Below, one piece after another: positions 1 to 38,517 of a DNA stretch of 38,517 nucleotides (position 1 is the stretch's first letter; each line of letters opens with the position of its first letter). The stretch covers positions 1 to 38,517 of IMG/VR virus record IMGVR_UViG_3300037692_000242. The stretch is one strand, 5' to 3'. Below the pieces are notes generated by a model. The model saw only the letters and a list, made by a program, of their open reading frames with translations. It searched no databases and was not told the DNA's origin. A program made the position numbers and the translations under genes. The DNA is from a virus. Lineage: Duplodnaviria > Caudoviricetes.

Positions 1-115
1 GTACGGTTGCAGCTGCGAGTCTGCTGGGCCGATCTTTGACGCTGAGGCGTGTGGCGAATGCCCACAAAATCAGAAATGTGATGTTCCGAAAAACCCCGAG
101 CAGTATCAAAATTGA
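1..115 (+). CDS. Small Cys-rich cassette protein, 3' part (38 aa if the window ends are joined)
   Basis: Open frame 2-115 reads YGCSCESAGPIFDAEACGECPQNQKCDVPKNPEQYQN*. The final 'at' (38516-38517) plus 'g' (1) would form ATG, downstream of AGGGGAGG. The ORF lies between two attC-like sites. Confidence 0.6.
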   Translation, partial: YGCSCESAGPIFDAEACGECPQNQKCDVPKNPEQYQN

Positions 116-119
116 TTTC

Positions 120-208
120 ACATAACGGCCAATGATAACCGGTGGCGACGGATGGAACGGGCCTTGACCACTGCCGCATATTCCATCCGGTTGATCAAAT
201 TGTTAGGC
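120..208 (-). mobile_element. attC-like recombination site (array site 4)
   Basis: ACATAAC(120-126)...GTTAGGC(202-208). Arms TGATAACCGG / CCGGTTGATCA with one extra base in the right arm; inner stem GGATGGAA/TTCCATCC. Confidence 0.88.
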
Positions 209-225
209 ATTTTTGAGGAGGAAAC

Positions 226-792
226 ATGGGATCCAGCGAAGATATCAAAATTAAATATTTTCTTGGCGAAGGGAGTGAGTCCCTTGCAATTATCCTTGAG
301 GCCAAAAAGGAGCAAACCCTGCACTTCGAAAAGGTAAACGCTCTTGTCTCCAAATACGGTGCTGATGCCGCATGGGGTGGACGTGCGGAACTCTCGGCCC
401 TCGCATTCAACCATGATCCTTCGGTAAAGCCAGAGATGAAAGAAGGTTTTTTGCGGCCAAAGATCCACACCAGTGATGGTCAGAGATATGCCGTTTATTC
501 CCCGGACAAGCGTTACAAGGAGGGGAAGGGTCTTGCACGGGAGCTTAAAGGCGTGGGAACTTTCAATTTTAGCGACTGTATTGTGGAAAAACTAGGCCTC
601 ACATGCAGTGTGTTCGGCCAACTCGACGGCAGGTGGGTCAGATGTTCGACTTCCGCCGGATGCTACGGCGAACGGATTGTTGTTCGGTTCCCCTCTGGTG
701 GCGACTCGCGGCCCCAAGAGATTGCGCTGCATCCATTTCTACGGGAAATCAAGCGGTCGGAGTTTATCGCAATTTCAGAAGAAAGTGCCTAA
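226..792 (+). CDS. Hypothetical cassette protein (188 aa)
   Basis: GAGGAGG RBS before ATG; stop TAA lies inside GCCTAAC; cassette ends GTTAGGCA/TGCCTAAC are complementary. Confidence 0.85.
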   Translation: MGSSEDIKIKYFLGEGSESLAIILEAKKEQTLHFEKVNALVSKYGADAAWGGRAELSALAFNHDPSVKPEMKEGFLRPKIHTSDGQRYAVYSPDKRYKEGKGLARELKGVGTFNFSDCIVEKLGLTCSVFGQLDGRWVRCSTSAGCYGERIVVRFPSGGDSRPQEIALHPFLREIKRSEFIAISEESA

Positions 793-870
793 CGGTTACT
801 GATAACCGGTGGCGACGGATGGAGGCAGGATCGCTGCTGTTATTCCATCCGGTTTATTAGATTGTTAGCG
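787..870 (-). mobile_element. attC-like recombination site (array site 5)
   Basis: GCCTAAC(787-793)...GTTAGCG(864-870); arms CTGATAACCGG / CCGGTTTATTAG; core nearly identical to the site at 120-208. Confidence 0.88.
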
Positions 871-896: not shown

Positions 897-1310
897 ATGT
901 ACTTAGGATTTTTGGAAGAAGGTGACCGCTGCCGAGAAAACCAATGCGGCGGTAAGCTCAGGTTCCCGAAGGTGGAAAATTGCTCGTGCCACATAAGCCC
1001 GCCTTGTGGTGCTTGCACGTCGATCAGGCTTACGTGTGATGCCTGCGGGTGGGTAGATGACGCCCCGGAATACATCGATGCCCCTGTCGCACCCGGACTG
1101 GCTATGCGAGAGTGTCGACCTCGCCCCCTAGACAGCACCAAGATCGACTACAGAACAAAGAGGCACAGCAGCTGTTCAATGCTAATTGAGGGCGTTTACC
1201 CGCTAGGGACGACCAGAGAGGAAGTGGTTGCCTTGGTCAAAGGCACGTTCGGCGGGAGATTCGAAACATTCGGCAACGGCAAGTTCAGATATGTCGCGTA
1301 CACCGATTGA
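897..1310 (+). CDS. Cys-rich, probable zinc-binding cassette protein (137 aa)
   Basis: GGAG RBS; motifs CxxxxC, CSCHISPPCGAC, CDACGW; cassette ends GTTAGCGGT/ACCGCTAAC. Confidence 0.85.
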   Translation: MYLGFLEEGDRCRENQCGGKLRFPKVENCSCHISPPCGACTSIRLTCDACGWVDDAPEYIDAPVAPGLAMRECRPRPLDSTKIDYRTKRHSSCSMLIEGVYPLGTTREEVVALVKGTFGGRFETFGNGKFRYVAYTD

Positions 1311-1318
1311 TGTTTGAC

Positions 1319-1422
1319 CGCTAACGATAGAGATAAGGGGCTGGTGCAGAATGGCTGTGAACCAGCGAGACTATCGAGAACACTAATTGCCGAACCAGTC
1401 CCGCTTCATTGACGGGTTAGGG
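1319..1422 (-). mobile_element. attC-like recombination site (array site 6)
   Basis: CGCTAAC(1319-1325)...GTTAGGG(1416-1422); arms GATAAGGGGCTGGT / ACCAGTCCCGCTTCATT with extra bases in the right arm; spacers 6 nt (left) and 5 nt (right). Confidence 0.88.
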
Positions 1423-1634: not shown

Positions 1635-1722
1635 CCCTAACCTTTCAAGAATAAGCGGCTGCGGCGAGGCGTTGGGCCTATGCACAGCCGGTTATTCAGT
1701 CCGATTAATTCTAGGGTTAGGT
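1635..1722 (-). mobile_element. attC-like recombination site (array site 7)
   Basis: CCCTAAC(1635-1641)...GTTAGGT(1716-1722); arms GAATAAGCGGCTG / CAGTCCGATTAATTC with extra bases in the right arm. Confidence 0.85.
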
Positions 1723-1746: not shown

Positions 1747-1935
1747 ATGCGGGTAGATGCGGATAAACACACCGTTGTTTATGCACTGTGCGAGATGCAC
1801 GAAATAACAAGGAAGCTCTGGCACATAAGGGAATTAACCAGGGCCGCAGGCAACCATGATGCGACCATTGAAATAAACGAACTGGTGGACATTATGCAGG
1901 TGATGCTACCTGCCCCGATTAAGAAGGCCACCTAA
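1747..1935 (+). CDS. Hypothetical cassette protein (62 aa, MRVDADKH...)
   Basis: AAGGGGA RBS before ATG 1747; stop TAA inside ACCTAAC; cassette ends GTTAGGTGGCC/GGCCACCTAAC. Confidence 0.75.
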   Translation: MRVDADKHTVVYALCEMHEITRKLWHIRELTRAAGNHDATIEINELVDIMQVMLPAPIKKAT

Positions 1936-1988
1936 CGAGGGAGGTAAGCGCGTGAGCGTAGCGAATCCGCTTGACCGTATTGTTATAC
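1930..1988 (-). mobile_element. attC-like recombination site, 59 bp (array site 8)
   Basis: Minus strand reads GTATAAC-AATAC-GGT(C)AAGCG...CGCTTACC-TCCCTC-GTTAGGT: the classical 59-base-element layout with 5/6 nt spacers and an extra C in L''. Confidence 0.9.
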
Positions 1989-2524
1989 CTCATGGTGGCT
2001 ACCGCACCATAGTAGCAGACCCGCCGTGGAAGTACGGCAAATGGGGAAAGGCCAGCATTGCACCGTGTGGTTCCACCTACGCGCCACAAGACAGCGTGAT
2101 GCCGTACCAGACGATGACGGTGGCCGAGATAACCGCATTGCCTGTTGCCGAGGTTGCCGCTGTCGATTGCGATCTCTACTTGTGGACCACCCAGCGGTAT
2201 TTGCCTGTAGCATTCGATGTGCTCAAAGCGTGGGGCTTCAAATACTGCCAGACGTTGACATGGTGCAAGAAGCCGAAAGGGACGGGTCAGGGCGGTTTGT
2301 TTTGCCCCACGACCGAATTCTTGCTGATCGGCCGCAAAGGGCGGATGCCTAAAGGAAAGCAGCGGATCGACACGACCTGGTGGGAAGTGAAGAGGCCGAT
2401 GCGACACAGCCAGAAGCCGGAGCATTTCCAGGACATCATTGAAATGCAGGGGGAAGGGCCACGACTCGAGCTTTTTGCCAGACGCCACCGCCCCGGCTGG
2501 GACGTGTGGGGTAATGAGGTATAA
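1952..2524 (+). CDS. MT-A70 family N6-adenine methyltransferase (cassette-borne)
   Basis: IVADPPW catalytic motif, LYLWTT, WGF.Y, RHSQKPE, LELFARR..PGWDVWGNEV; GTG start with GGGAGG RBS. Confidence 0.92.
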   Translation: MSVANPLDRIVIPHGGYRTIVADPPWKYGKWGKASIAPCGSTYAPQDSVMPYQTMTVAEITALPVAEVAAVDCDLYLWTTQRYLPVAFDVLKAWGFKYCQTLTWCKKPKGTGQGGLFCPTTEFLLIGRKGRMPKGKQRIDTTWWEVKRPMRHSQKPEHFQDIIEMQGEGPRLELFARRHRPGWDVWGNEV

Positions 2525-2542
2525 CCTTTGATTAGCCGGACC
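2519..2542 (-). mobile_element. attI-like insertion site terminating the array
   Basis: Minus strand GGTCCGGCTAATCAAAG-GTTATAC resembles class 1 attI1 (GCCCTAAAACAAAGTTRRRY) in having CTAA-N6-GTT; no inverted arm, so it is not an attC. Confidence 0.6.
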
Positions 2543-2555
2543 GTGCAAGGTTGAC

Positions 2556-2870
2556 ATGTACCGTAAACGCACCAAGGGAAGTCGAAAGTTCAACGAACGC
2601 ATGGCCGCCGCCCGTGCAGCAAAGGAGCGTCTCCGCCTTGAGGGAGACGCTCCTGATTACCCCGCTGAACCTCTCCTGATCCGCCGGCGGGTGATCATCG
2701 AGGACTACGACTGCGGCCAGGTGGTGCGGCACGAATTTACCCTGGCCCGATCCGGGCGGATTGACAGCTACGATGTTTCGGCCGATGGGGTGTCCCTCGG
2801 CCGCATGGGGTGGGCCAGAACTCTTGTTTTTGTCCGCAAGGCGTTTATCCGGGTGGGGAGGTTTGACTGA
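2556..2870 (+). CDS. Hypothetical phage protein (104 aa)
   Basis: AAGG RBS; co-oriented with neighbours; no tyrosine-recombinase motifs. Confidence 0.7.
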   Translation: MYRKRTKGSRKFNERMAAARAAKERLRLEGDAPDYPAEPLLIRRRVIIEDYDCGQVVRHEFTLARSGRIDSYDVSADGVSLGRMGWARTLVFVRKAFIRVGRFD

Positions 2871-18333: not shown

Positions 18334-21300
18334 ATGGCATTGAAAGATCTCGACAATCTCCTTCAGGCGGAACTTGCTACCGGCAAAGAGAAGTCTTCCG
18401 CCTACGCCAACGGGCTGACGCTGGCCTTCGAGACAAACCCCGATGTGGAAGCGCAAAAGCAGAAGCTTCAGAAAACCACCGGGATTCCCGCGGCCCTGAT
18501 GGACGACGAAACGAAACAGCTTGCCGAACTGCAGAACTTCCTTTCCTCGAAGGGTGTCACTGACCTTCCGACCAAAGCCCCCCTGACCGCCAATTGGATT
18601 TCCCAGCAGGAAAACGCCAACATCGCTCATGACGACATCGAAGCCCTGGTGAATCTCGAAGCCCTGGCCAAGGCAGGTCCGAACGCTCCCGGGGCTAAGT
18701 CGACCTTGCGCTTCAACACCGAATATGATCAGGGCCGGGTCCGGTCCGTATCCGAAGCATTTATGGATGCCCTCAAGTCGTCCCCCGACATGGCAGCCGC
18801 CGGACTGGCCGAACCCGGGGTCTGGCTGGGCGATTTCGTCGAGTGGAGTCTGCGCCCCTTTGCCGATCCGCTCGGGCAGAGAAAACAGGTTGCCGACGCT
18901 TTGAGATACAGCGCTTCATACTGGGACCGCAATGTGAAAATGCGGCAGAAGGAATACAAACCCGGATCCCCGGAGTCCTACGGCCAGATGGTCGGCGGGA
19001 GTATCGGCACATCCCTCCTTGCCGCTCCGTTCGGCCTGGCCGGGGAGAATGCCGCCCTCGGCGCCTTCGCCCTGTTCGCTGGCGGCGGCTACCAGGATAT
19101 GGTCGATTCCGGAACCTCAATCCCCATGGCCATTGCTCTTTCCGGCAGCAACAAGGCCATGGAGGGTTTAACCGAAAAGCTCGGGATGGATGCCCTCTAC
19201 GGGGGGAAGGGGCCGATCATCAAAAAGGCGGTCAAATTCTTACTCGGAGACCTGGCCGGGGAGGAAGTCAACGCCCTTTATAACCTGGGTGTTTCCAAGG
19301 TCACGGTAACCCCGGACATGACCATGGAGCAGGTTGTCCAGCAGTTGGTCGACACGGCCATCGTGACGGCTTTTGCAGGCCCTATCCAGGGTGGCACCAT
19401 GGGCGGCGTCTCCCGGGCGTCCGGTGCGCTCTATGACGCTCAACTCAAAAGAGCCACCGCCAAAGATCAGGAAGGGTTTCTTCTCGCGTTAGGGGATAGC
19501 GTCAGGGGGACCAAGACGTTTAAAAGAATGCCGGAAAAGGTCCAGGCATTGATTCAGGAGATCAAAAAAGACGGCGCCGTCCAAGACATCTATATCCCGG
19601 TGGAGCATTTCAATGAACTCTTTCAGGCACAAGGCATGTCTCCGGAAGAAGCTGCAATTCAGATTCTCTCAGATCCATCTCGGTATGATGAGGCTGTCGC
19701 TACCGGCGGCGATATCGCTATCCCTCTGGAGGAGTTCGCTAAACTTGCAGATGCTCCTTACTACGCAGAGCTTGCACGGAACGCTAAGACTCATTTTGGT
19801 AGCCTTTCCGCTCGGGAGGCCGAAGACTTAGATTCTCAGACGGAGCTCATGCAGAGCCAGATTCTCGACCTGGCGCAGGAAGACACCGCTCCCGTTGAAG
19901 AGACGGAAGTCAACCAGGCGTTTCGCCAGAAGACTCCCGACCAACGGGCGGCAGTCATCGAAGAAGAAAAGGCGAAGCTGGCCGTGGGAGAAGACGCGGG
20001 AGAACTGCAGAAGCAGATTACAGACTTTGAAAAGATTGCCGCCGAGAAGCCGGGGCAGTATGAAGCCTATCAGCGGATTCACGAAGACACCTACGAGCAG
20101 TTGCTGGCAGTGGGACGCCCTCCGCAAGAAGCCCGGGATCACGCCGAAGTCCGAGCCACCGCCCTGTCGACCCTGGCGGCGCAGCATGGCTACGACTATA
20201 AGGACCTGTTGAATCGTTTCCCTGTCAGGGTCACCAACGGTGGGGACGCGCAGATTCCGAGCGGACCCTTTGCTGGCAAAACTTACGCGAATGTTTTTGC
20301 CGAAGGCACGTCATGGGTTAAATCGGAGAATGCCCGTCGTGAAAACCCCGCGGCCAAGGTTTCCCCCCGGGAACAGCAGTTCCGGGACATGGCGGCAATC
20401 GACGCGGCGGACATTGATACCAACGCGACCAACGCCGAGGCCCTTGTCATCGACGGTCACAAGAAAAAAGCGACCATTTCAGCCAATACTTTCGCCCACA
20501 GGTGGTATCTAGATGCCGGCTACCCCGCGGCGGATGTCGTGGCGACGCTGAAAAACATCGCCAAAGGGAAGCAGTTGACAGAGAACCAGCAAGTCATTGC
20601 TGGCGATTGGGCGGAAAGCAACAAGGTTCTTCAGTCAAAGTTCATGACCGGCGTGACGGCGGGGGACCTTCAGGAAGGCGACGAGTTCACCGCCATGATC
20701 GACGACAAGCTGGATGATTTTACCGTCGTCAAGGTCGAAGGTGGGGACGTTACGCTCAAGGACGGGGTGGTCAAGACGGTCGACTTCTTCGACAGCATCG
20801 AGATCGTCGGCGGGATTGCCGGAGTGACGAACAAGGAAGCCGAAGCCGACCCGGAAGAGACCCGCCCGGTGACGATGGACGATTATTTTGCTCTGCATGG
20901 AGCACAGATTCCTTCCCGGCTTGACCAGGGCGGAGTCGATGACAAAACAGGACTCCCCCTAAATGCAGACGGCACGGTTACGGTTTATCACCATACCAGT
21001 AAAGAAAAGGCGGCAAAAATCAGGGAGAGCGGCACACTGAAAGCAACCGCGGAGCCTGATGTCTATGTTACGACGCGAAGAGAGACGGACACTGGTTATG
21101 GAGACACCGCGGTGAGTATTCAGGTCGACCCTTCTCTTCTGGAGATTGACGATGAATTTCCTGATGGTCGTGTCGACTATCGCTTGAGCGTCGGCAAGCC
21201 GGGGGGATCGATTGCCGTCAAGGTAACCACCCCGGTTGAATTATCCGAGGTCCTTTCCGATTTAAAGCAAAAATTTCCGGACTTGAACTTGGCCGTGTTT

Positions 21301-24300
21301 GAGAACAAAGGCCAAATTTCCATCAACCGGATCCAGTTTCCTAAAGAGCAACAAGGTCAGGGGAACGGGTCTGTCGTGATGATCGCCCTCACGGAATATG
21401 CCGACGCAACAGGTCAAGTTATCACGTTGACTCCCTCTTCCGATTTCGGGGGGACAAAAAGCAGGGTCGTCTCCTTCAATAAGCGTTTTGGTTTTGTCGA
21501 GAACAAGGGCAAAAATAAAGACTTTGCAATCTCCGACACGATGTATCGCCTGCCGAAAAAAGAAAAGGATCGAACTCTTTTCCAAGGAGGGTCCGCCGAA
21601 GGGCACGAAACCTTCTCCGTCAGGAAAACCCAGGAAGAGGGGATGCTGCTCACGGCGACCGTCACCGATGGCGTGACCAAGGTTTCAGGCATCGGCGCCA
21701 CCCACTACGATGCCAGCACCACGATGAAGGCAACACTTCCCGAAGGGCTGACCAACGGGACCGGATTCGTCACCCCGGACGGAATCTTTCTCCGGCGCAA
21801 GGAAGCCGTTCAGTGGCTCAAGGAAAATCGAAATGATGCCTATCGGGCACTCGACAAGATCACCCGCACCAACGGGCTGGAGTCCCAGGCTTATGCCTTT
21901 GCCGAAGGCGTCGTAACGGGCATCGACAACAGCATTGAGGACTTTATCCGGCAGCAGTTCGGCACGGATGCGAGGACTCTTTTTCAGTCTCAACCTCTCG
22001 ACAAAATATCCTTTGACACTTCCGGTGAATTTGAAACCGGGAGAGAAGTCACATTCAACTTCGTTCACAACACAGCGTCTGCAACAAAGATTTTTGGAAA
22101 GCCGAAAAAGGATTCTCCGCACGACCGCAGTCTTGAACCGTCCGGGCGGTACGTCACCAAAGTTGATAAGGCGGCGAAGGATCTCCCTGCCGGCATGATT
22201 GGAGGAGAAATTACCTTTCGCAACCCGATTGTCCTGAAGGGAGAGAATTGGAAAAAAGAACTCTCCTCTCAATTCGGCAACAAGACCGGCAAGAGGTTGA
22301 GCCTGGCGATAATCGAGGCAGGTTTCGACGGAGTAGTCACGACTTCTGAAAGCAAAAGCGGAAGGTACGTGTCTGAGATCCTCGACCTGACGACCTTCGA
22401 CGAAGCCAAGGCCCTTTACCAAAGCGGCAGACCTTCGTGGGTCGACGCTGCCAAGGAAATAACTGAGGAGCGACGGGCGGAGTTTGCAGCGGCGGCGATA
22501 AAGTTTTTCGGAAAAACCACAAACCCGTACGAGGCGGGATATGTCCTACCGAACGGAACCATGCTTGACCTGTCGGGTCGTCATTATTCTCAGGATCACC
22601 CTTCTCTGCGAGGGCAAAGATCTGTGGACCACCGGGAACTCATGGGGGAAAACAGTGACGAGTTTTCCATTGAGGAGTTTTTCCCGGATGGGTTAAGCGG
22701 CAGCGACAGCATGGCGTATTTCATGGCGGCAACCGGGGCAATGCGAATCGATATTCGCTCCGGTGTCGCTTCGTCCATGGGGTCTCCCTCACAGAAACAA
22801 ATAACCGTTTTGGGAAATGCGCTGAAGGGAGAGGATGCAACGATCAGCCTTGTCAATCCCGAAACCGGGAAGATTGTGGATGAAGGGGAAATAGACAACG
22901 CGAATCCGAGGAAGATAAAAGCATTTTTCGAAGCCGCCGCCGCCAAGCCGGACGGATTTTCCTACTTCCAAGGGAAGGGTAACGCTGGCAAGCGCGGGTA
23001 CATTCGCTTCGGCGGTTCCCTGGAAGGATTCGAAATCGGCCTGCTCAAAGACGCCAACCCGTCGACCTTTATCCATGAGCTCGGGCATTACTACATGGAG
23101 ATTTTAGGCGACCTTGCCCAGGACGAGGGGGCTCCTGATGCTCTCAAGGCCGACTACGCCACCCTGCTGAAATGGGTGGGGGCCAAGGACCGCGCTTCGT
23201 TGTCCGTCGAGCAACTTGAGCAGATCGCCCGGGGCTATGAGGCATACCACTGGGAAGGCAAGGCGCCATCCGAAAAGCTCAGGGCCGTCTTCGCTCGGAT
23301 TTCCGTCTGGTTCAAGGCGGTTTACAGGACGCTCAAGGAACTCAATGTCGAGCTGACCCCGGAAGTCCGGGACGTTTTCGACCGGCTGCTGGCCACCGAC
23401 GAAGAAATAGCCCAGGCAAAGCAGAACGCAAAGCCTCTTTACGCGACCGCCGCGGACGCCGGCATGACGCCGACCGTCTTTGCCGCCTATCAAAAACTTG
23501 CCGAGCATGCGCAGGCCGACGCCGCAAGCCGGCTGGACGTGGCCAAGATGCGCGATTTCCTCCGGGAACAGCAACAGTGGTGGAAGGATGCCCGGGACGC
23601 CATGCAGGAACAAATCGAGAAGGAGGCAGAAGGCAATCCCGTCTACCAACTGCTTCACCTGATCTACAACGGGGAACTCTTCGACGGTTCGCCCTACGAG
23701 GGGGGGCAGTCGCGGCTCTCCGGGACCCTGCTCAAAGAACAAATCGACCCGAAAAAGATGAAGATTTTGCGGAAGAAACTCGGGAACGTCTACGTCAACG
23801 AGGGAGGTATCGATCCGCAACTGGCGTCCGAGCAGTTCGGGTTTTCTTCCGTCGACGAGATGGTGGAAAGACTGCTCTCCGAGCCGAAGATGAAGGCATG
23901 GGTCAAGGAGGAGACCGACAGGCGGATGGAGGAGCAGCACGGGCACATGGACCCGATGAAGATTGCCCAGGAAGCCCTCTCTGCCGTCCACAACGATTAC
24001 GAGGCGACCCTTCTCCGTGAAGAGCTCAAGGCCATCAACAAGAAGCGGCGGGAGGTCAAGCCGTTCACCGACGCCGAGAAGAAGCAGGGCAAGGAAAATC
24101 TTCAGAATGAAAAAGCCCAGCGCAGGTATGAGCGACGGTGGATGGATGCCGAAGCCAAACTGAAAGTTGCCGAAGCCAAGGCTGCAGGCAAAGAAGAGAT
24201 CGACGCCCTCAAGGAAGAAATCCGCAGCAACAAAAAGCTGCAGATCGCCGCCAGAAATGTTGCCAAGGATCTCGTCCCTCCCATTGCCAGCTTCAAGAGT

Positions 24301-26874
24301 GCCGCTGTGCTCTTCATTTCCAAGATGAAAGTGCAGGAGATCCTCCCCGGGAAATTCGCTCAGGGCGAACAGAAAGCGGCCAAGGAGGCATTTGCACTCA
24401 ACGGGCAAGGGAAGTACGAGGAGGCGGCTCAGGCCAAGACCAGGCAGCTTCTCAATCACTACCTGTATCGGGAAGCGACCAGGGCCAGAGAGGAAGCCGA
24501 ATCCATCGCCAAGCGTATGAGGAAGCTCGGGGAAGGAAAGAGCCAGGCGCGGATCGGCAAGGCCGGTCAGGATTATCTCGAACAGGTCAACGGGCTTCTC
24601 GACCAATACGAGTTCGCCAAGGTCACCTACAAGGAACTCGACGCCCGGGAATCGCTCAAGGCATGGGTGAAGCGCAAGACGGAAGCCAACGGTTTCCCTC
24701 CCCCGATTGCTCCGGGAATCCTGGAGGAAGCCAGCCGGATCAACTACAAGACGTTGACGGTCCAGTCACTTCATGACGTGGCCGAGACGGTCGATATTAT
24801 CGTTCACCTCTCCCGCGTCGACGGCAAGATTCAAAAAGAGCAAGAGAAGCAGGACATCGCCGACCTGGGAGACATGGGTGCCGAGTCGATAGCCGAACAT
24901 TCCAAGGGAAAGAAAAAGCGGCACATCGAAAAGCGATTGACGCAGGACGAGTTCGGCAACGGCATGGACAATTATTTTGCCAGCCACCGCAAACTCTCTT
25001 CCCTGACCCGGCAGATGGACGGCGGTCAGGACGGCGGGGTGATGTGGAACCTCTACATGAGACCCCTGAATGAAGCCGCCGACAAGGAAGCGGCCATGAG
25101 GGCCGCGGCGGCGGAAGCCTTTCAGGAGATTTTCACCGTCTATTCCGTCCGGGAACGCGCCCAAATGAGCAAACGGGAGCACATCCCTGCCCTCGGAGAT
25201 AGCCTGTCGAAGTGGGGGCGACTGATGGTGGCTCTCAACATGGGCAACGACGGCAACCGGCAGCGCCTGGGGTCGATGTTCACCCCGGAGCAGGTTGCGG
25301 CCATCATCGATACCCTCGACGAGCGGGACGTGCAGTTTGTCCAAAGCGTTTGGAATTTCATCGGCAGTTACTGGAGCGAGATCGAGGCCAAGGAAAAGCG
25401 GGTCAACGGGGTGGCTCCGCAGCGGGTCGAGCCGACGCCCTGGGTGACAAAGTTCGGAATCAAAGCCGGGGGGTATTTCCCCATTTCCTACGATGCCGTC
25501 GAAACGCCGAAGGCCGGGGCACAGCAGCAACAGGAGATCCTTCAGCAGATCATGGGCGGGGCGTTTTCAAGGGCCACTACGCGGCACGGGCATACAGAGG
25601 CGCGGTTGGAAGCCCTCGACCGCCCTCTGAACCTGTCCATTGATGTCGTCTTCAACCACGTCAACCAGGTCATTCACGACCTGACACATCACGAAGTGCT
25701 TTATGACGTGAGCCGAATCATGGGGACCAGCGCCATGCAGAAGGCCGTTGTCGACCATTACGGCATCGAGATCTACAAGGTCATGACCGAAGGGCTCAGG
25801 GACATTGCCATTGGGGATATCCCGGCGCAGAACGCTTTCGAACGGTTCATGAACTACTCCCGTATCGGCATTTCGACGGCCAGCCTCGGTTACAACCTGG
25901 TGACCGCCATGATGCAGCCCATGGGCCTGACGCAATCCATCGTAAGGATCGGCTGGAAGCCTGTCGCCAAGGGAATCAGTCGCGCCATCGGCACCCCGGA
26001 GATGATGGGGAAGACGGCGGATTGGATTTATGAACAATCGTCCTTCATGAGGACCCGCGGCCTGACACAGAACCGTGAGATCAACGAGATCAGGAATCAG
26101 TTGGATGTCGGATTGGTCCCGCATGCGGTCAAGGAGTCTTATTTCTACTTCATCCAGCAGATGCAGCGCGTCGTCGATATCCCGACCTGGCTGGGGCAGT
26201 ACGAAAAGAGCATGGCCGAACATGGAGACGAGAAGTCCGCCGTTCTCGAAGCCGACCAGGCGGTGATTGATTCTCAAGCCTCGGGACAGATGAAGGATTT
26301 GGCTCGGATTCAGAAGGGCGGGGCGTACCAGAAAATGTTCACCACCTTTTACTCCTACTTTTCGACCACTTACAACCTGGCGGCAGAGAGCAAAGCGAGG
26401 ACGGATTTCAAAAATCCCCTTGAAGTTGGCAGGTTCATTGTCGACATGCTGATGCTCTACGTCGTGCCGGTGGTCCTGACCATGGCGCTGAAGGCGGCAA
26501 TCAATATCGCCATCGGCGGGGACGATGACGACAAGGACTTCGGAGAAATTGCCAAGGACTTCGCCGGGGAGAGCCTTGGATACCTCCTCGGCGGATTCAT
26601 CGGTGCTCGAGAGTTCGGCAGCGTTCTGGCCGGGTTTGCGGGGTATCAGGGACCGGCAGGCGCAAGGTTCTACAGCGACGCCAGCAAGCTGGCCAAAGAG
26701 CTTGCCCAGGGGGAACTCGACGGGGGACTGGTGAAGAGCCTTAACGCTGTCGGCGGGATTCTCTTTCACTACCCCGCTCTGCAGATTCAGCGCACGGCCC
26801 AGGGCATTATCGAGATCAAGGAAGGCCGCGGCAACGCACTGTCCCTGCTCTTCGGCAAGCCGAGAAAAAATTGA
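18334..26874 (+). CDS. Giant internal virion/ejection protein (gp16-like position), polyvalent multi-domain
   Basis: 2846 aa; central ART-like, GNAT-like and HELGH zincin-like domains; hydrophobic C-terminal region. Confidence 0.88.
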   Translation: MALKDLDNLLQAELATGKEKSSAYANGLTLAFETNPDVEAQKQKLQKTTGIPAALMDDETKQLAELQNFLSSKGVTDLPTKAPLTANWISQQENANIAHDDIEALVNLEALAKAGPNAPGAKSTLRFNTEYDQGRVRSVSEAFMDALKSSPDMAAAGLAEPGVWLGDFVEWSLRPFADPLGQRKQVADALRYSASYWDRNVKMRQKEYKPGSPESYGQMVGGSIGTSLLAAPFGLAGENAALGAFALFAGGGYQDMVDSGTSIPMAIALSGSNKAMEGLTEKLGMDALYGGKGPIIKKAVKFLLGDLAGEEVNALYNLGVSKVTVTPDMTMEQVVQQLVDTAIVTAFAGPIQGGTMGGVSRASGALYDAQLKRATAKDQEGFLLALGDSVRGTKTFKRMPEKVQALIQEIKKDGAVQDIYIPVEHFNELFQAQGMSPEEAAIQILSDPSRYDEAVATGGDIAIPLEEFAKLADAPYYAELARNAKTHFGSLSAREAEDLDSQTELMQSQILDLAQEDTAPVEETEVNQAFRQKTPDQRAAVIEEEKAKLAVGEDAGELQKQITDFEKIAAEKPGQYEAYQRIHEDTYEQLLAVGRPPQEARDHAEVRATALSTLAAQHGYDYKDLLNRFPVRVTNGGDAQIPSGPFAGKTYANVFAEGTSWVKSENARRENPAAKVSPREQQFRDMAAIDAADIDTNATNAEALVIDGHKKKATISANTFAHRWYLDAGYPAADVVATLKNIAKGKQLTENQQVIAGDWAESNKVLQSKFMTGVTAGDLQEGDEFTAMIDDKLDDFTVVKVEGGDVTLKDGVVKTVDFFDSIEIVGGIAGVTNKEAEADPEETRPVTMDDYFALHGAQIPSRLDQGGVDDKTGLPLNADGTVTVYHHTSKEKAAKIRESGTLKATAEPDVYVTTRRETDTGYGDTAVSIQVDPSLLEIDDEFPDGRVDYRLSVGKPGGSIAVKVTTPVELSEVLSDLKQKFPDLNLAVFENKGQISINRIQFPKEQQGQGNGSVVMIALTEYADATGQVITLTPSSDFGGTKSRVVSFNKRFGFVENKGKNKDFAISDTMYRLPKKEKDRTLFQGGSAEGHETFSVRKTQEEGMLLTATVTDGVTKVSGIGATHYDASTTMKATLPEGLTNGTGFVTPDGIFLRRKEAVQWLKENRNDAYRALDKITRTNGLESQAYAFAEGVVTGIDNSIEDFIRQQFGTDARTLFQSQPLDKISFDTSGEFETGREVTFNFVHNTASATKIFGKPKKDSPHDRSLEPSGRYVTKVDKAAKDLPAGMIGGEITFRNPIVLKGENWKKELSSQFGNKTGKRLSLAIIEAGFDGVVTTSESKSGRYVSEILDLTTFDEAKALYQSGRPSWVDAAKEITEERRAEFAAAAIKFFGKTTNPYEAGYVLPNGTMLDLSGRHYSQDHPSLRGQRSVDHRELMGENSDEFSIEEFFPDGLSGSDSMAYFMAATGAMRIDIRSGVASSMGSPSQKQITVLGNALKGEDATISLVNPETGKIVDEGEIDNANPRKIKAFFEAAAAKPDGFSYFQGKGNAGKRGYIRFGGSLEGFEIGLLKDANPSTFIHELGHYYMEILGDLAQDEGAPDALKADYATLLKWVGAKDRASLSVEQLEQIARGYEAYHWEGKAPSEKLRAVFARISVWFKAVYRTLKELNVELTPEVRDVFDRLLATDEEIAQAKQNAKPLYATAADAGMTPTVFAAYQKLAEHAQADAASRLDVAKMRDFLREQQQWWKDARDAMQEQIEKEAEGNPVYQLLHLIYNGELFDGSPYEGGQSRLSGTLLKEQIDPKKMKILRKKLGNVYVNEGGIDPQLASEQFGFSSVDEMVERLLSEPKMKAWVKEETDRRMEEQHGHMDPMKIAQEALSAVHNDYEATLLREELKAINKKRREVKPFTDAEKKQGKENLQNEKAQRRYERRWMDAEAKLKVAEAKAAGKEEIDALKEEIRSNKKLQIAARNVAKDLVPPIASFKSAAVLFISKMKVQEILPGKFAQGEQKAAKEAFALNGQGKYEEAAQAKTRQLLNHYLYREATRAREEAESIAKRMRKLGEGKSQARIGKAGQDYLEQVNGLLDQYEFAKVTYKELDARESLKAWVKRKTEANGFPPPIAPGILEEASRINYKTLTVQSLHDVAETVDIIVHLSRVDGKIQKEQEKQDIADLGDMGAESIAEHSKGKKKRHIEKRLTQDEFGNGMDNYFASHRKLSSLTRQMDGGQDGGVMWNLYMRPLNEAADKEAAMRAAAAEAFQEIFTVYSVRERAQMSKREHIPALGDSLSKWGRLMVALNMGNDGNRQRLGSMFTPEQVAAIIDTLDERDVQFVQSVWNFIGSYWSEIEAKEKRVNGVAPQRVEPTPWVTKFGIKAGGYFPISYDAVETPKAGAQQQQEILQQIMGGAFSRATTRHGHTEARLEALDRPLNLSIDVVFNHVNQVIHDLTHHEVLYDVSRIMGTSAMQKAVVDHYGIEIYKVMTEGLRDIAIGDIPAQNAFERFMNYSRIGISTASLGYNLVTAMMQPMGLTQSIVRIGWKPVAKGISRAIGTPEMMGKTADWIYEQSSFMRTRGLTQNREINEIRNQLDVGLVPHAVKESYFYFIQQMQRVVDIPTWLGQYEKSMAEHGDEKSAVLEADQAVIDSQASGQMKDLARIQKGGAYQKMFTTFYSYFSTTYNLAAESKARTDFKNPLEVGRFIVDMLMLYVVPVVLTMALKAAINIAIGGDDDDKDFGEIAKDFAGESLGYLLGGFIGAREFGSVLAGFAGYQGPAGARFYSDASKLAKELAQGELDGGLVKSLNAVGGILFHYPALQIQRTAQGIIEIKEGRGNALSLLFGKPRKN

Positions 26875-29852: not shown

Positions 29853-30283
29853 AAAAGTCTCTGCTGGTAATTCATTGCGCCGACACCTATTCCCACATGA
29901 ATATTGACGTGGAAACGGTGAGAGGCTGGCACAAGGCCAAAGGATGGACGGATATTGGATACGCTCATTTCGTCAAGCGGGACGGCACCATCCAAGCCGG
30001 AAGGGATCTCGACGGCGACGGCGACGTAAGCGACGAGGTTGGAGCCCACGTCTCCGGGTTCAATGCCGAGTCTATCGGGATTTGCTACGCCGGAGGAAAG
30101 GGAACCAACGGCCACCCTCAGTTCAACGCGACCCCGGAACAAATGGCGTCCCTGCAATTTTTGGTGGACGCCTACGAGGTCAAGTTCCCCGGGATCAAGA
30201 CGGTCGGCCACTGCGACCTTCCCGGGGGAGACAAAGCCTGTCCGGTCTTCGATGTCGGGGCATGGCGCAAGACGTGGAAATAA
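29849..30283 (+). CDS. Endolysin, N-acetylmuramoyl-L-alanine amidase (T7 lysozyme-like)
   Basis: VIHC, GW.DIGY.HF, GAHV.G.N..SIGICY.GG, VGHCD, KACP Zn-amidase motifs. Confidence 0.93.
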   Translation: MKKSLLVIHCADTYSHMNIDVETVRGWHKAKGWTDIGYAHFVKRDGTIQAGRDLDGDGDVSDEVGAHVSGFNAESIGICYAGGKGTNGHPQFNATPEQMASLQFLVDAYEVKFPGIKTVGHCDLPGGDKACPVFDVGAWRKTWK

Positions 30284-30319: not shown

Positions 30320-30483
30320 CAATCCCCCATTTCCCTGCACAGCTTCTTGTAAAAATTCTTTCTCGCCCGAAGAATGCTGATTTCCTTTTTGGCCTCGCAG
30401 TATTTGAACTGGTAGCTTGCCGCCGTGCTGACCATTCGTTTCAGCCTCCACGTCAAATCCTTGATCTCCTCGTCTTTGGTCAT
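30319..30483 (-). CDS. Small hypothetical protein (54 aa; not in ORF track)
   Basis: MTKDEEIKDLTWRLKRMVSTAASYQFKYCEAKKEISILRARKNFYKKLCREMGD*; ATGA overlap with the upstream nuclease gene and AGGAG RBS. Confidence 0.65.
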   Translation of the reverse strand: MTKDEEIKDLTWRLKRMVSTAASYQFKYCEAKKEISILRARKNFYKKLCREMGD

Positions 30484-31016
30484 TCCCACTCCTTTATAAT
30501 TTTAGAAGAACCCTTGGCTATGTCTTCATACCTCTCATAGGGAATACCAAGTTCAATAGCTATCCTTTCCGTTTTCCGTGATTGTGTTATCAGTGAAAGT
30601 TTTGCATATTCATCTGGATAATATTTTTTGAACCGCTTTAACTTCGTGATACTCTTACTGTCGAACCATCCCTTGACCTCTATCCATCTCCCCGTGGTTT
30701 TGTTGAAAAAGTCAGGGGTATATGAAACGGTTCCTCTGCGAATGCCCTCAAAGTAAAAATCTCGGGGTTCGTAATCCCATTCCTCCCCGATAAGGTTCAG
30801 GTATCTAGCGAAGTTCGCTTCTGTTTTGCTTCTAAAGAAAACGTCTCCAAGATCCACCCTCTTCCCGGAGACTGTTCTTGAATATGGGTTTGTAATATGT
30901 CTCATAGGGTTGACTGTTCCATTGGAAACCTTGGTTAAGAGAATCTTTTCGGACCTATCGCTGATGTTCTTTGCGGTCAAGTCAACACTATTCCGGTTCA
31001 TTGTTGGGACAGGCAT
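30480..31016 (-). CDS. PD-(D/E)xK endonuclease, T7 endonuclease I-like (putative resolvase)
   Basis: FRSKTEANFARYL...WDYEP..F...YTPDF...IEVKGW; true start may be 31001 or 30905. Confidence 0.85.
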   Translation of the reverse strand: MPVPTMNRNSVDLTAKNISDRSEKILLTKVSNGTVNPMRHITNPYSRTVSGKRVDLGDVFFRSKTEANFARYLNLIGEEWDYEPRDFYFEGIRRGTVSYTPDFFNKTTGRWIEVKGWFDSKSITKLKRFKKYYPDEYAKLSLITQSRKTERIAIELGIPYERYEDIAKGSSKIIKEWE

Positions 31017-31779
31017 CGTCGTGCCCCTCGGTGCGGTGGCAGAATTCGCAAGGCTCGATTTCCTTAACCTCCCGCGGTTCTGGGGTGAATCCGAAACGGT
31101 CCATCAGCGTCGTCGGGGGAGTCCTGTCGATCCCTTCGTGCTCGTTGAGCATGTGAATCGCTTCCGCCATGCGCTCCGTTTTCGGAAGGAGCTTGAAGAG
31201 TTTCTTCACGGCAGTTTTTCTCCACATCTCAGATTCCCATTCAACCCAAGGTCCCGATTTGGCCTTGCTCACCGCCTTGACCTTCATCACCTCTTCCCGG
31301 TCAAGGACGATGAATTTCTTCATGCCGTTGTGGAGGATGGCTACCGCGTAGACAAAGACGGCTTCTCCCTTGTTTCCGCTCATGACGGGCCGGTGAACGA
31401 GCTTGGGACTCAGCCCCATTTCGTAGTCGAAAACGTCATTTTCGTAAACCACCGAAGCGTCGATATCCAGGACCGATCCCGAGTCTGTCGCCACCATGAC
31501 CATGCCGCGGTAGGAGATATCCAGCACACACTTTCCCCCCCTGGGTACGAGATAGGCCAGGGCCAGCGCCGGGTTCAGGCTGATGCCAATGGTTGCCAGG
31601 TTGATGATCGCATTCTGAATCGATTCCTGGGTGCATTTCTGCAGGGCCTCGCTGCCGCGCACCACCTGCATGGCGAAAACAAGTTCTCTGTTCCATCTGG
31701 CTTCGTCGCCGTTTTCGATTTTCAGGAACATGGATTTTGCCGAAATGATGGCCAGTTCGTGTCGTGGTCTGTCGGTCAT
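30988..31779 (-). CDS. recT: RecT family single-strand annealing protein
   Basis: C...SI..A....A..G..LNP....AYLVPRGG...L.ISYRG, VVYENDVF.Y..G, PW.....EM..KT.VK...K.LP. Confidence 0.92.
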   Translation of the reverse strand: MTDRPRHELAIISAKSMFLKIENGDEARWNRELVFAMQVVRGSEALQKCTQESIQNAIINLATIGISLNPALALAYLVPRGGKCVLDISYRGMVMVATDSGSVLDIDASVVYENDVFDYEMGLSPKLVHRPVMSGNKGEAVFVYAVAILHNGMKKFIVLDREEVMKVKAVSKAKSGPWVEWESEMWRKTAVKKLFKLLPKTERMAEAIHMLNEHEGIDRTPPTTLMDRFGFTPEPREVKEIEPCEFCHRTEGHDDACPNNEPE

Positions 31780-31797
31780 GATAATCTCCCTGGTAAT

Positions 31798-32895
31798 TTA
31801 GGCGTTGGCTTCGGCGATGATCAGGATCTGCTGCATGATATCCTCCGCATCATGGCCGGTCGCATTGTACTCCGTGACGAGACCAATGATCTTCTTGAAC
31901 GCGGTCCCGGAATCCTTGCACTTGGCGGCGAGGATCTTCTTTTCCCGCTCGACCTTCTTCTTCTCCTTCTCTGCGGCCAGCCGGAGTTTTTCGTTCTCAG
32001 CGTTCCTAAACCGAATCTGCTCCTGCTCTTCTGCCCAGCGAAGGTCTTCCTGCCGGCGCTTCTCGGCGTCGATGCGGTCCTGCTCTTCCCGAGCGGCGCG
32101 TTCCTGCTTCTCCTTTTCTTCCCGGAGAATCCGGGCGGCTTTCTCCTGCTCCTCCTGCTGAATGCGCAGCTTCTCATTGTGCTGGCGCCATTCTTCTTCC
32201 TGTTGCTGCTTCCTCTTTTCGAACTCCTCCCGCTCGAGCCGCAACTTTTCGGCCTCCTCGTCCATGCGCTTCTGTTCGATTTCCCGGGCAATGCGCTCCT
32301 CTTCGAGTCTGGCAAGCCGTGCGGCCTCCTCAGCAAGCACAAGCTCTTCTTCCTGCACCCTTGCTGCATGGATCTCTTTGACGGCAACCAGGGCCGAATC
32401 AAGGGCCTCCTGTGCCAAAAGCAGCCACTCCCCGTAAGTGTCCGGGTCGAGAATGTGATGGGCCAGAAAGTCGACGCTCTCCTGAATTTTAGCCGAAGGC
32501 AGGCCGGTCATGCGCTCGGGGATACCCTTGATCTTTTCTATGGACCCCATGATTTTCTGAACGCGAAGCTGTTCCGCGGCAATCTTGCGCTGTTTTTCCT
32601 CTTCCTTCCTCGCCTCTTCTTCCTTGATCTGCCGGTCAATCGGCTCTTCGAGCAGGCGGATCTCGGTTTCAATCCGCTTGGCTTCCGTGTCGATCAACTT
32701 GGCTCTCTCCAGGGCCGGAGCTTTGAGCTCCTTCCGCTTGGCCTCCAGATCGACGCGCAGGGTGACGAGTTCCCGGCGGTCCAGTTTGGCCAGGTTCATT
32801 CCCGTGACGGTAGTCACATCGTACCGGGCATCCTTGAGCTTGGCCTGCAGGGCGGCGAGGGCGGCGGCGGTGACATTGTACTCAATAATATTCAT
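31798..32895 (-). CDS. Coiled-coil protein of the recombination operon (DUF1351-like)
   Basis: RVDLE.KRKELK.P.L...K.ID.EAKRI...I...EEPID.QIK followed by a long E/K/R-rich coiled coil. Confidence 0.8.
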   Translation of the reverse strand: MNIIEYNVTAAALAALQAKLKDARYDVTTVTGMNLAKLDRRELVTLRVDLEAKRKELKAPALERAKLIDTEAKRIETEIRLLEEPIDRQIKEEEARKEEEKQRKIAAEQLRVQKIMGSIEKIKGIPERMTGLPSAKIQESVDFLAHHILDPDTYGEWLLLAQEALDSALVAVKEIHAARVQEEELVLAEEAARLARLEEERIAREIEQKRMDEEAEKLRLEREEFEKRKQQQEEEWRQHNEKLRIQQEEQEKAARILREEKEKQERAAREEQDRIDAEKRRQEDLRWAEEQEQIRFRNAENEKLRLAAEKEKKKVEREKKILAAKCKDSGTAFKKIIGLVTEYNATGHDAEDIMQQILIIAEANA

Positions 32896-32914
32896 CTACA
32901 TTTCCTCCTGAAAT

Positions 32915-36971: not shown

Positions 36972-36999
36972 TTGACATACGGAAAAATGTTGCCATTAT
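36972..36999 (+). promoter_or_regulatory. Sigma70 promoter facing the cassette array
   Basis: Perfect TTGACA, N16, TGc-CATTAT extended -10; AT-rich tract upstream. Confidence 0.65.
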
Positions 37000-37213: not shown

Positions 37214-37474
37214 ATGAAAGCACAATTCGAACTGGACTTAACCAACGCCCTTTTGCCCGACTGGTGGCCCACGGGCATACCCAAGGTTTTACCGGTGGAA
37301 AAAGGCCGGTATAAAAAAGATTTCGACCTCTGCCGGGAGAAGATAGCGCCCGACGACTACCGGCAATTGCTGGAGGCTACCGACTACGCCAACGTCGGAC
37401 GAGACAGCGGTATCCCGATCGGTCTGGATTTTATTCACATCCCTATCGGCGCCGTTATTCGGAGGACGAGATAA
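37214..37474 (+). CDS. Hypothetical protein (86 aa), backbone gene flanking the array
   Basis: AGGAGG RBS; stop TAA inside AGATAAC; no upstream GTT box matching its end. Confidence 0.8.
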   Translation: MKAQFELDLTNALLPDWWPTGIPKVLPVEKGRYKKDFDLCREKIAPDDYRQLLEATDYANVGRDSGIPIGLDFIHIPIGAVIRRTR

Positions 37475-37573
37475 CGCCCCGATCAGCGCACGGCGACGGG
37501 CCGGGCGAGGATCGACGAGATTTTAACGAGGAGCACTGCCGTCCATTCCGTTCGCTGAATTGGATGGTTATCT
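37469..37573 (-). mobile_element. attC-like recombination site (array site 1)
   Basis: AGATAAC(37469-37475)...GTTATCT(37567-37573); arms GATCAGCGCACGG / CCGTTCGCTGAATT with an extra base in the right arm. Confidence 0.85.
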
Positions 37574-37595: not shown

Positions 37596-37811
37596 ATGAG
37601 CACGAGATACAAAAGGTCAGAAGATGTGCCCAACGAAACACTGGCGACTAGGCTGGACGAATTGGCCAAGGTCGTCACCACGGGGACTTTTGGTAGCGAA
37701 TTTTCTATGCGAGTCCCCGCCGAACTCGACCGAGACGCCGACATCGTGATGGCCGAGGCTGCACGGAGGATCAGATCATTGGACAACAAGGGTCCTGTTT
37801 TCGATAGATAA
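37596..37811 (+). CDS. Hypothetical cassette protein (71 aa)
   Basis: AAGGG RBS; F.MRVPAE.DRDAD.V..EAARR; cassette ends GTTATCTA/TAGATAAC. Confidence 0.8.
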   Translation: MSTRYKRSEDVPNETLATRLDELAKVVTTGTFGSEFSMRVPAELDRDADIVMAEAARRIRSLDNKGPVFDR

Positions 37812-37910
37812 CGCTTCAAGCTCAGGGGCGCCGCACCGGGCCTTGAATATCACCGAAATTATCGAGAACCACGGACGCCGAAGGCGTCCCTTTGAAGCGC
37901 CTGGTTACAC
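37806..37910 (-). mobile_element. attC-like recombination site (array site 2)
   Basis: AGATAAC(37806-37812)...GTTACAC(37904-37910); arms GCTCAGGGGCGCC / GGCGTCCCTTTGAAGC. Confidence 0.85.
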
Positions 37911-37926
37911 GACCATGGAGGACTGT

Positions 37927-38412
37927 GTGAGCAAACACATTCAGGAAATCGTTGAATCAAGAGATTACGGGAAAATGGTTGGATTCTTCGAGAATCCAAT
38001 TCCAGGGGAGTATGTCATCACTGGCCCGCAAGCCGGGAATCTGAGAGGGGAAGGTGCTGGGGGTTGGCACCGGTACGTCGGCTATGTTGTTCAGGTAAGA
38101 GAAAAGGCCGGAGCTTTTGGATCTGCCATCGTACTGCTGCGGCACCCTGACGGGGTGTTGGGCAGACACGAAAACCAGATGTTTCACCGGGTGGACAGTG
38201 GGGTCTTAGCGAAAATAAAGGCACTCTATGAAGAGGGTATGACTCCCGACGAATACGAGGATTATTCTCAGCCGTACTCCCTGAGTGGAGAATACCCGGA
38301 GACCGGGCGGGTGATCGGGCCGAAGGATGATGGCCCACCAAGGGATAACCGCCCGATGGTGCAGATTACCACCATAAGCCCCGACGGAAGCCGAAGGGTT
38401 GAGGTCGTGTAA
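37927..38412 (+). CDS. Hypothetical cassette protein (~161 aa)
   Basis: GGAGG-N5-GTG at 37927 (or ATG 37915); VQVR..AGAFGS..VLLRHPDG.L..HENQ.F motif; cassette ends GTTACACGACC/GGTCGTGTAAC. Confidence 0.82.
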   Translation: MSKHIQEIVESRDYGKMVGFFENPIPGEYVITGPQAGNLRGEGAGGWHRYVGYVVQVREKAGAFGSAIVLLRHPDGVLGRHENQMFHRVDSGVLAKIKALYEEGMTPDEYEDYSQPYSLSGEYPETGRVIGPKDDGPPRDNRPMVQITTISPDGSRRVEVV

Positions 38413-38509
38413 CGCCAAAATAACCGGCTGCGACGGGACATAAGCGAACCACCGCCCCATTCGGGGCAGCACTGACGATGTTCAGTCCGTGTTTATTTTA
38501 TGGTTAGGG
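38407..38509 (-). mobile_element. attC-like recombination site (array site 3)
   Basis: GTGTAAC(38407-38413)...GTTAGGG(38503-38509); arms AAAATAACCGGCTG / CAGTCCGTGTTTATTTT with three extra bases in the right arm. Confidence 0.87.
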
Positions 38510-38517
38510 GAGGATAT

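Follow-up and report, generated by a model that had tools for sequence, protein, structure and literature searches.

Genomic setting of the attC array

The window, by which we mean the whole stretch of DNA analysed, is an entire virus record of 38.5 kb. Profile searches of its proteins recovered terminase, portal-type, capsid and tail genes, together with an O-like replication gene, RecT and an exonuclease. Since a 38-aa gene starts at 38516 and stops at 115 across the contig join, the record closes into a circle; this join-crossing gene is also present across the join in a further locus (L228) at 96% DNA identity. Between the replication genes and the terminase lies an array of eight attC hairpins (S1 to S8) and eight small plus-strand genes, the last of which encodes an MT-A70 methyltransferase (Table 1). 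Our analysis confirmed that the hairpins are built as in bacteria and that the genes are reversed relative to them, and it supports reading the array as a phage variant of the integron. By covariance-model matches, the array has at least two attC within 4 kb on one strand and no intI, in agreement with the CALIN definition in the accessible part of PMC4889954.

Several other features surround the array. Iteron-like direct repeats with an 11-nt period occupy 35918-36102 inside the O-like replication gene, a candidate origin approximately 1.4 kb left of the array. A recombination block on the minus strand (30480-33817) encodes a Holliday junction resolvase, RecT, a 365-aa unknown protein and an exonuclease VIII-like protein, and an open frame of 2846 aa lies amid the virion genes (18334-26874). 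Scanning 32 proteins of the window revealed no integrase. An Rfam scan of the window returned zero matches at E<=1, and no RNA holder was listed for the array.

Table 1 Coordinates of the array, its cassette genes and the features at its two ends.
Feature	Position	Strand	Remarks
S1 attC	37469..37573	-	anatomy and covariance model
S2 attC	37806..37910	-	anatomy and covariance model
S3 attC	38407..38509	-	anatomy and covariance model
S4 attC	120..208	-	anatomy and covariance model
S5 attC	787..870	-	anatomy and covariance model
S6 attC	1319..1422	-	anatomy and covariance model
S7 attC	1635..1722	-	anatomy and covariance model
S8 attC	1930..1988	- (top strand); folding bottom strand is plus	predicted crossover between AA and C, 1935/1936; unpaired G 1973
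Left-flank gene, outside array	37214..37474	+	its TAA lies within the left box of S1
Cassette 1 gene, 71 aa, no family match	37596..37811	+	ends complementary over 8 nt
Cassette 2 gene, weak phrog_33619	37927..38412	+	ends complementary over 11 nt
Cassette 3 gene, 38 aa, Cys-rich	38516..38517 and 1..115	+	ends complementary over 4 nt only
Cassette 4 gene, DUF5420	226..792	+	ends complementary over 8 nt
Cassette 5 gene, phrog_22771	897..1310	+	ends complementary over 9 nt
Cassette 6 gene, 62 aa	1443..1631	+	ends complementary over 10 nt
Cassette 7 gene, 62 aa	1747..1935	+	ends complementary over 11 nt
Cassette 8 gene, MT-A70 family DNA methyltransferase	1952..2524	+	PF05063, E 4.9e-24; ends complementary over 12 nt
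MT-A70 ribosome site GGAGG 1940-1944 and GTG start 1952	1940..1954	+	inside hairpin S8
attI-like docking site	2519..2537	-	AAC 2523-2525, 5-nt spacer, degenerate L box 2531-2537; predicted crossover 2524/2525
12-bp near-palindrome, putative operator (function inferred)	2540..2551	.	fixed distance from AAC
104-aa gene, no known family	2556..2870	+	occupies the position of intI in related phages
Promoter-like site, 10/12, extended -10	36972..36999	+	upstream of array; lead only

Anatomy and strand polarity of the attC sites

The 59-bp site reported in the preliminary description is present at 1930-1988 as described. On the plus strand, S8 reads AAC, a 6-nt spacer and a 7-nt box, followed by an 8-nt box with an unpaired G (1973), a 5-nt spacer and GTT, which is the layout of the aadA7 benchmark bottom strand in Table S3 of PMC9892861, as far as that source was available. 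In a fixed register, the right spacer measures 5 nt in all eight sites and the left one 5, 7, 5, 7, 7, 6, 8 and 6 nt from S1 to S8, so the right spacer is indeed never longer than the left, although the exact registers shift in an unconstrained search. The claim that the unpaired bases sit on the right arm of all eight sites holds firmly for seven; at the leftmost, S1, it is marginal, the right-arm bulge tying with "no bulge" (9 vs 9) in the unconstrained search. In textbook attC sites, the first unpaired base is a G. Here this is the case in S4 and S8 only, and bacterial sites of the same families vary at that column too. In the consulted part of PMC2727003, the unpaired bases lie on the R''-L'' arm and the AAC of R' is followed at once by a conserved G; a G directly follows the left AAC on the plus strand in 7 of the 8 sites, and in none of them does it follow an AAC on the minus strand. 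With the minus strand taken as the top strand, the sites have the R''/R' cores, the L''/L' boxes, the 5-nt R''-L'' spacer and the extrahelical arm of attC.

We built a covariance model from 44 aligned bacterial gene-sense attC sites (from 56 read), drawn from chromosomal integrons in the class of a Geobacteraceae MAG (20 regions) and from two further loci (L041 and L215), and searched both strands without filters. The stem covaries in this alignment. The model gave eight matches in the window at E<=1, all on the minus strand (E from 7.7e-9 to 6.2e-5, the E-values being rough; 36.6 bits for S8), corroborating that the canonical layout appears on that strand only. In a plain alignment, each of the eight sites likewise resembles a bacterial gene-sense site more as minus than as plus. 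Across 70 loci anchored on the gene to the right of the array (a set with some duplicates, and with four L215 sites shared with model training), 153/153 model matches were on the minus strand, as were 44/45 in IntI-anchored viral loci.

Folding both strands, suggested earlier as a check, succeeded only in part: the structural search placed the unpaired bases on the right arm in 7/8 sites, while minimum-energy folding assigned no strand. We rejected the latter as a polarity test, as it gave the canonical S8 hairpin on neither strand. A first structural detector was also abandoned, having miscalled S6 as plus and produced 2-3 chance matches per shuffled window at a threshold of 9.5; it was replaced by a two-orientation version together with the covariance model. 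The predicted probability of a recombinogenic fold ranged from 8e-8 to 3e-2 among the window sites and favoured no strand, against a median of 0.3 for 41 bacterial sites chosen for their high score. Because predicted folding is weaker than in these high-scoring bacterial sites, attC activity may be low. The S8 loop (1952-1967) is the same 16-mer as in PH101_attC1, a site listed in Table S3 of PMC9892861 and shown to recombine in the portion of that study available to us. A blastn search of S8 against GenBank phages returned chance matches only.

Cassettes consist of a hairpin followed by its gene

The MT-A70 gene links S8 to the gene that follows it. GTG 1952, 7 nt after GGAGG, is the only in-frame ATG, GTG or TTG before the catalytic motif. 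Since this sole usable start lies inside the hairpin along with the ribosome site, S8 belongs to MT-A70. At another locus (L316), a 70% identical MT-A70 lies behind an S8-like hairpin that contains the same ribosome site and, in the same frame, an ATG; the hairpin downstream of this gene is a different one. As had been noticed, the rightmost gene has matched ends and no hairpin after it. These ends comprise 12 consecutive complementary nt (the next best of 609 AAC positions reached 6), the stop TAA forms part of the end box, and in three other runs the MT-A70 sequence breaks off at 2525. At the opposite end, gene 37214 indeed lacks a matching upstream box (best 3 nt). Among 33 MT-A70 loci, the structural detector found an upstream hairpin in 6 and the model matched in 3, counts that may miss hairpins of distant families. 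For cassette genes 5 and 8, there are also relatives beside which no hairpin was detected.

Comparison with related phages and with contigs of other public runs supports the proposal that each cassette is an attC followed by a gene: a hairpin stays with the gene that follows it, and sequence identity is lost at the left AAC, the opposite of what hairpins tied to their upstream genes would give. Four cassettes shared with relatives start at most 9 nt from the upstream AAC and stop at the next AAC; three further shared stretches stop at a TAAC and one breaks off within a gene. Of the eight stretches inspected, not one extends across the downstream hairpin. Two contigs of other runs, X2 and X4 (paired across listings by equal length and depth), carry S7 with gene 1747 over 1644-1937 and 1644-1935, respectively, after which come other hairpins, of S2 type in X4 and probably of S3 type in X2. 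In these two runs gene 1747 thus keeps S7 and lacks S8, so S8 is not part of the preceding gene's unit. Gene 897 breaks off at 1325-1326 in three other runs. No excision joints of the window's own cassettes were listed, the comparison drawing on contigs of other runs only. Distant cassette homologues, compared at the protein level, differ in both flanking sites. Relatives of cassette 5 with approximately 50% identity are found in proviruses (L011-L016), where attC was not found beside them.

In five of the eight genes, the stop codon is the TAA of the box that follows, and ordinary cassette genes often stop in this way. Together with folding energies that pick no strand, this would suit ordinary cassettes, gene then attC, with a crossover between G and TT on the plus strand and a variant integrase that prefers the other strand. 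We consider such an arrangement highly improbable: genes move without the hairpin that follows them, MT-A70 would be deprived of its start codon, no hairpin comes after the last gene, and intI and attI lie at the right end in relatives.

The units thus have the form of integron cassettes bounded by crossovers in the AAC triplet, with some exceptions. Identity between L005 and L227 begins inside the upstream hairpin, and that between L228 and L232 stops inside a gene; a variant of gene 37596 in X4 (88% identity) lacks S1 upstream; and a 57% identical relative of gene 1443 has an S6-type hairpin behind rather than in front. Cassette 3, with its mismatched boxes, is likely a chimera. Breaks away from AAC and this chimeric cassette suggest that hairpins are sometimes swapped by another route, perhaps RecT.

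The right end holds an attI-like site and a linked small gene

The eight genes had been proposed to point toward attI, and a predicted attI does lie at the right end, as sequence and comparison both suggest. Judged by its sequence, 2519..2537 has the features of an attI at the proximal end of the array. Close relatives have the window sequence in common from AAC 2523 rightwards and differ to the left, and in one other run the attI side begins at 2523. Under a matrix from 18 viral IntI-adjacent sites, it comes second among the window's 1080 AACs, and its layout, AAC-5 nt-ATTAG, is that of the Shewanella-type attI printed in PMC9892861, within the part at hand. The covariance model matched no hairpin at the right end. 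A Pc-like match reading from the attI side scored 9/12 at 2987, which is at chance level.

Breaks inside hairpins, the chimeric cassette 3, the occurrence of the same hairpin types before and after many different genes, low predicted folding, and RecT and exonuclease VIII-like genes in a genome that lacks IntI would all fit hairpins that are relics of integrons, acting as repeated homology patches that RecT shuffles while IntI no longer acts here. This is quite unlikely in our view, as most breaks fall within 2 nt of AAC even though the flanking hairpins are often of unlike types, the ends are complementary over 8-12 nt in 7/8 cassettes, and the attI-like junction bears different cassettes in six close relatives although it is not itself a repeat.

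The succession of AAC, spacer, degenerate box and near-palindrome ahead of the 104-aa gene recurs in 83/99 distinct loci (19 further loci, too short or duplicate, being left out of this set), compared with a background of 102/2340 random windows. Where a motif locus has a nearby site, the boxes of the last cassette match over at least 7 nt in 42/60 cases, with 18/60 lacking a match. In bacterial loci (L208, L210-L213, L215-L217, L220 and L223), the same site and 104-aa module are followed by canonical AT-rich genes on the minus strand, and because bacterial records of the same module carry canonical genes, the polarity is fixed independently of hairpin anatomy. These bacterial loci have two or three palindrome copies, with the canonical minus-strand gene just beyond the AAC in most; no intI was found within the fetched loci of the L208-L223 set. 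The records that carry this bacterial form of the module are from Geobacteraceae, Motiliproteus and Marinobacterium.

The 104-aa protein forms 238 clusters at 50% identity, and its gene is present in 2/401 genomes of the phylum searched. It had no match in Pfam, NCBIfam or PHROGs, none in the GenBank phage set, and no PDB sequence match. Its structure model (pLDDT 82, pTM 0.53) had no Foldseek match at E<=0.001 in PDB or BFVD, the best VIA Z being 4.4, and an Atlas match of 0.80 to a hypothetical cluster serves as a lead only. At 104 aa, it is too short for the catalytic domain of a tyrosine recombinase. Our tentative view is that it is most likely no recombinase but a small regulator that binds DNA at the adjacent palindrome. 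Alternatively, the protein could belong to the recombination machinery, recruiting or redirecting a host recombinase at attI and so making an active integrase-less platform. This seems rather unlikely: the gene, palindrome and attI-like site are linked in those 83 loci, over GC contents of 39-68% and in both phages and bacterial chromosomes, and 0/10 virus records with the gene have an IntI over the cut-off (two complete ones being without any match), but no family, fold or fusion ties the protein to recombinases (no IntI fusion among the 10 longer homologues checked, of 150 listed), and an autoregulated gene that inherited the site would explain the linkage equally well.

Integrase genes in related phages

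The window contained no IntI match at E<=0.01 with 85 IntI queries; an intI beside the array, as in a complete integron, is found in relatives. With the integrase fragment of L008 as query, 80 of 180 viral loci were returned; in those that contain a complete integrase, intI starts shortly after a similar site, in the same direction as the cassette genes. All three full-length viral IntI tested passed TIGR02249, each with a reversed array. The attI-to-intI distance is mostly 30-116 nt in viral loci versus 142-222 nt in seven chromosomal ones. One phage with IntI (L025) and one of the 104-aa type (L005) share a cassette. The closest genome matches to the L025 IntI (67-75%) stand mostly beside reversed arrays, which points to the class of the Geobacteraceae MAG as that of the host; an IntI match was found in 149/301 genomes of this class. 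We discarded the idea of a single clade of phage IntI, as these are scattered over several supported groups in a quick, unfinished tree of 85 rows. The L008 contig itself (7296-8180) holds an array followed by an IntI-type attI, an integrase without its N-terminal half and a partial 104-aa gene, so that both platform types occur in one contig. Another virus, Rctr41k, has an IntI-like gene with only weak plus-strand matches downstream.

Most cassette genes in viral loci are reversed

In the window, the genes are on the plus strand and all eight attC on the minus strand; unlike in canonical cassettes, the genes occupy the bottom strand with their own attC in front. We scored gene direction in other loci from the best frame per strand between matched-box sites, counting identical segments once and dropping unmatched or oversize ones. 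Genes were reversed in 106/124 viral or metagenomic cassettes and canonical in 39/47 chromosomal cassettes. Specifically, the 104-aa-anchored viral or metagenomic loci had 73 plus, 5 minus and 8 ambiguous cassettes, and the IntI-anchored viral loci 33, 2 and 3, respectively; genome loci with a phage-clade IntI had 3 plus and neither minus nor ambiguous ones, whereas cassettes beside other IntI were 4 plus, 39 minus and 4 ambiguous. When 60 of 111 viral segments were drawn at random, 15/60 plus frames matched PHROGs at E<=1e-5, compared with 0/60 minus frames.

Among the exceptions inspected, L129 and L036 look truly canonical, and the others look like miscalls. Reversed polarity is not universal in phages, as the arrays of L326 (1358-3247) and TJE1 (L306, 244-1519) are canonical. 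L326 holds a 65% identical MT-A70 relative, so that one gene family occurs in both polarities. TJE1 is one of the phages of PMC9892861; in another, P12002L (L307), the covariance model showed one published attC (30005-30059) to be reversed relative to the flanking methyltransferase genes, a site whose junction was not confirmed in the accessible part of that study.

A proposed model: a phage integron with reversed cassettes

We consider it likely that the locus is a phage integron with reversed cassettes, made of hairpin-then-gene units exchanged between AA and C, with a fixed attI-like end at 2523 and IntI probably supplied in trans. Because this genome encodes no integron integrase, the enzyme likely comes from the host or from another phage; donors could be a host of the Geobacteraceae-MAG class or phages such as L025. 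The plus strand would fold when single-stranded. A rightward fork from the repeats in the O-like gene would make it the lagging-strand template, a position that favours attC folding according to the consulted part of PMC8946536. IntI would then join the folded plus-strand attC to attI by ordinary chemistry, with new cassettes entering next to attI.

Transcription of the genes probably starts at a phage promoter on the far, left side. The promoter-like site at 36972..36999 is a candidate and a lead only, since three such sites were found against 3.2 expected by chance. With transcription from the left, only genes facing attI would be read, which would select for reversed cassettes; in genomes that have intI, this transcript would end with that gene. 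The term "antisense", applied earlier to the array, is apt relative to attC and the bacterial Pc, but the genes are sense to the rightward gene block of the phage. According to PMC5027507, as far as available, the bottom strand is cleaved within the AAC of R', and the resulting orientation is essential for expression from Pc. Following this polarity rule, capture by a host integron could leave the genes silent, as had been suggested; we infer that far-end expression is a likelier reason for the layout than silence in a host integron.

More broadly, phages may run an integron branch of their own, with a reversed cassette pool, several IntI clades, and a 104-aa-assisted, integrase-less platform that takes either polarity in phages and chromosomes. 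The pool would be made from ordinary phage accessory genes, and IntI would be transcribed last in the array. This scheme is possible, if on balance doubtful. If phages do have such a branch, hairpins that supply start codons, and genes found both free and cassette-borne, would make cassette birth directly testable.

Relation to known integrons and implications

The array resembles sedentary chromosomal integrons in attC anatomy and sequence families and in its attI-like site (PMC2727003, PMC5027507 and PMC4889954, in the parts consulted), as well as in having one gene per cassette and complementary cassette ends; in phage relatives, intI also faces away from the attC direction. The attC families of the window occur in chromosomal integrons of the Geobacteraceae-MAG class too, with the same polarity to intI and the genes on the other strand. 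Unlike in sedentary integrons, the phage genes are encoded on the bottom strand and point toward attI. Each is preceded by its hairpin, within which its ribosome site and start codon can lie, the crossover box is often made up by the stop codon, and intI is absent from this genome. The Treponema inverted-integrase integrons (PMC4889954, in part) are similar in that intI and the cassette genes run in the same direction. There, however, it is intI that is turned around with respect to attC, and the cassettes themselves are of the ordinary kind, whereas here the genes are flipped inside the cassettes and the intI-attC relation is the usual one, with intI on the plus strand and attC on the minus strand in relatives.

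The phage CALINs of Qi et al. 2023 (PMC9892861) share with our array an attC cluster without integrase in a phage and a DNA methyltransferase cargo, and their sites recombined with attI1 by IntI1; compared with what is accessible of that study, the present locus adds a conserved attI-like site with a linked gene, and its relatives carry phage IntI clades. The available portions of its text and supplement contain no analysis of gene direction versus attC. We found no description of the reversed-cassette phage layout in the literature searched, where subscription papers are thinly covered, and the consulted parts of PMC11551772, PMC13323075, PMC13676570 and 10.1101/2022.02.06.479319 added nothing further.

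Pipelines that assign cassettes as gene then attC would pair each phage gene with the wrong hairpin. The module of attI and the 104-aa gene is a small, concrete object for experiment. Bacteria stock anti-phage genes in integrons (10.1101/2024.07.02.601686, in the part consulted). Sharing their attC families with host integrons, phages probably exploit the integron machinery to exchange accessory genes, methyltransferases among them.
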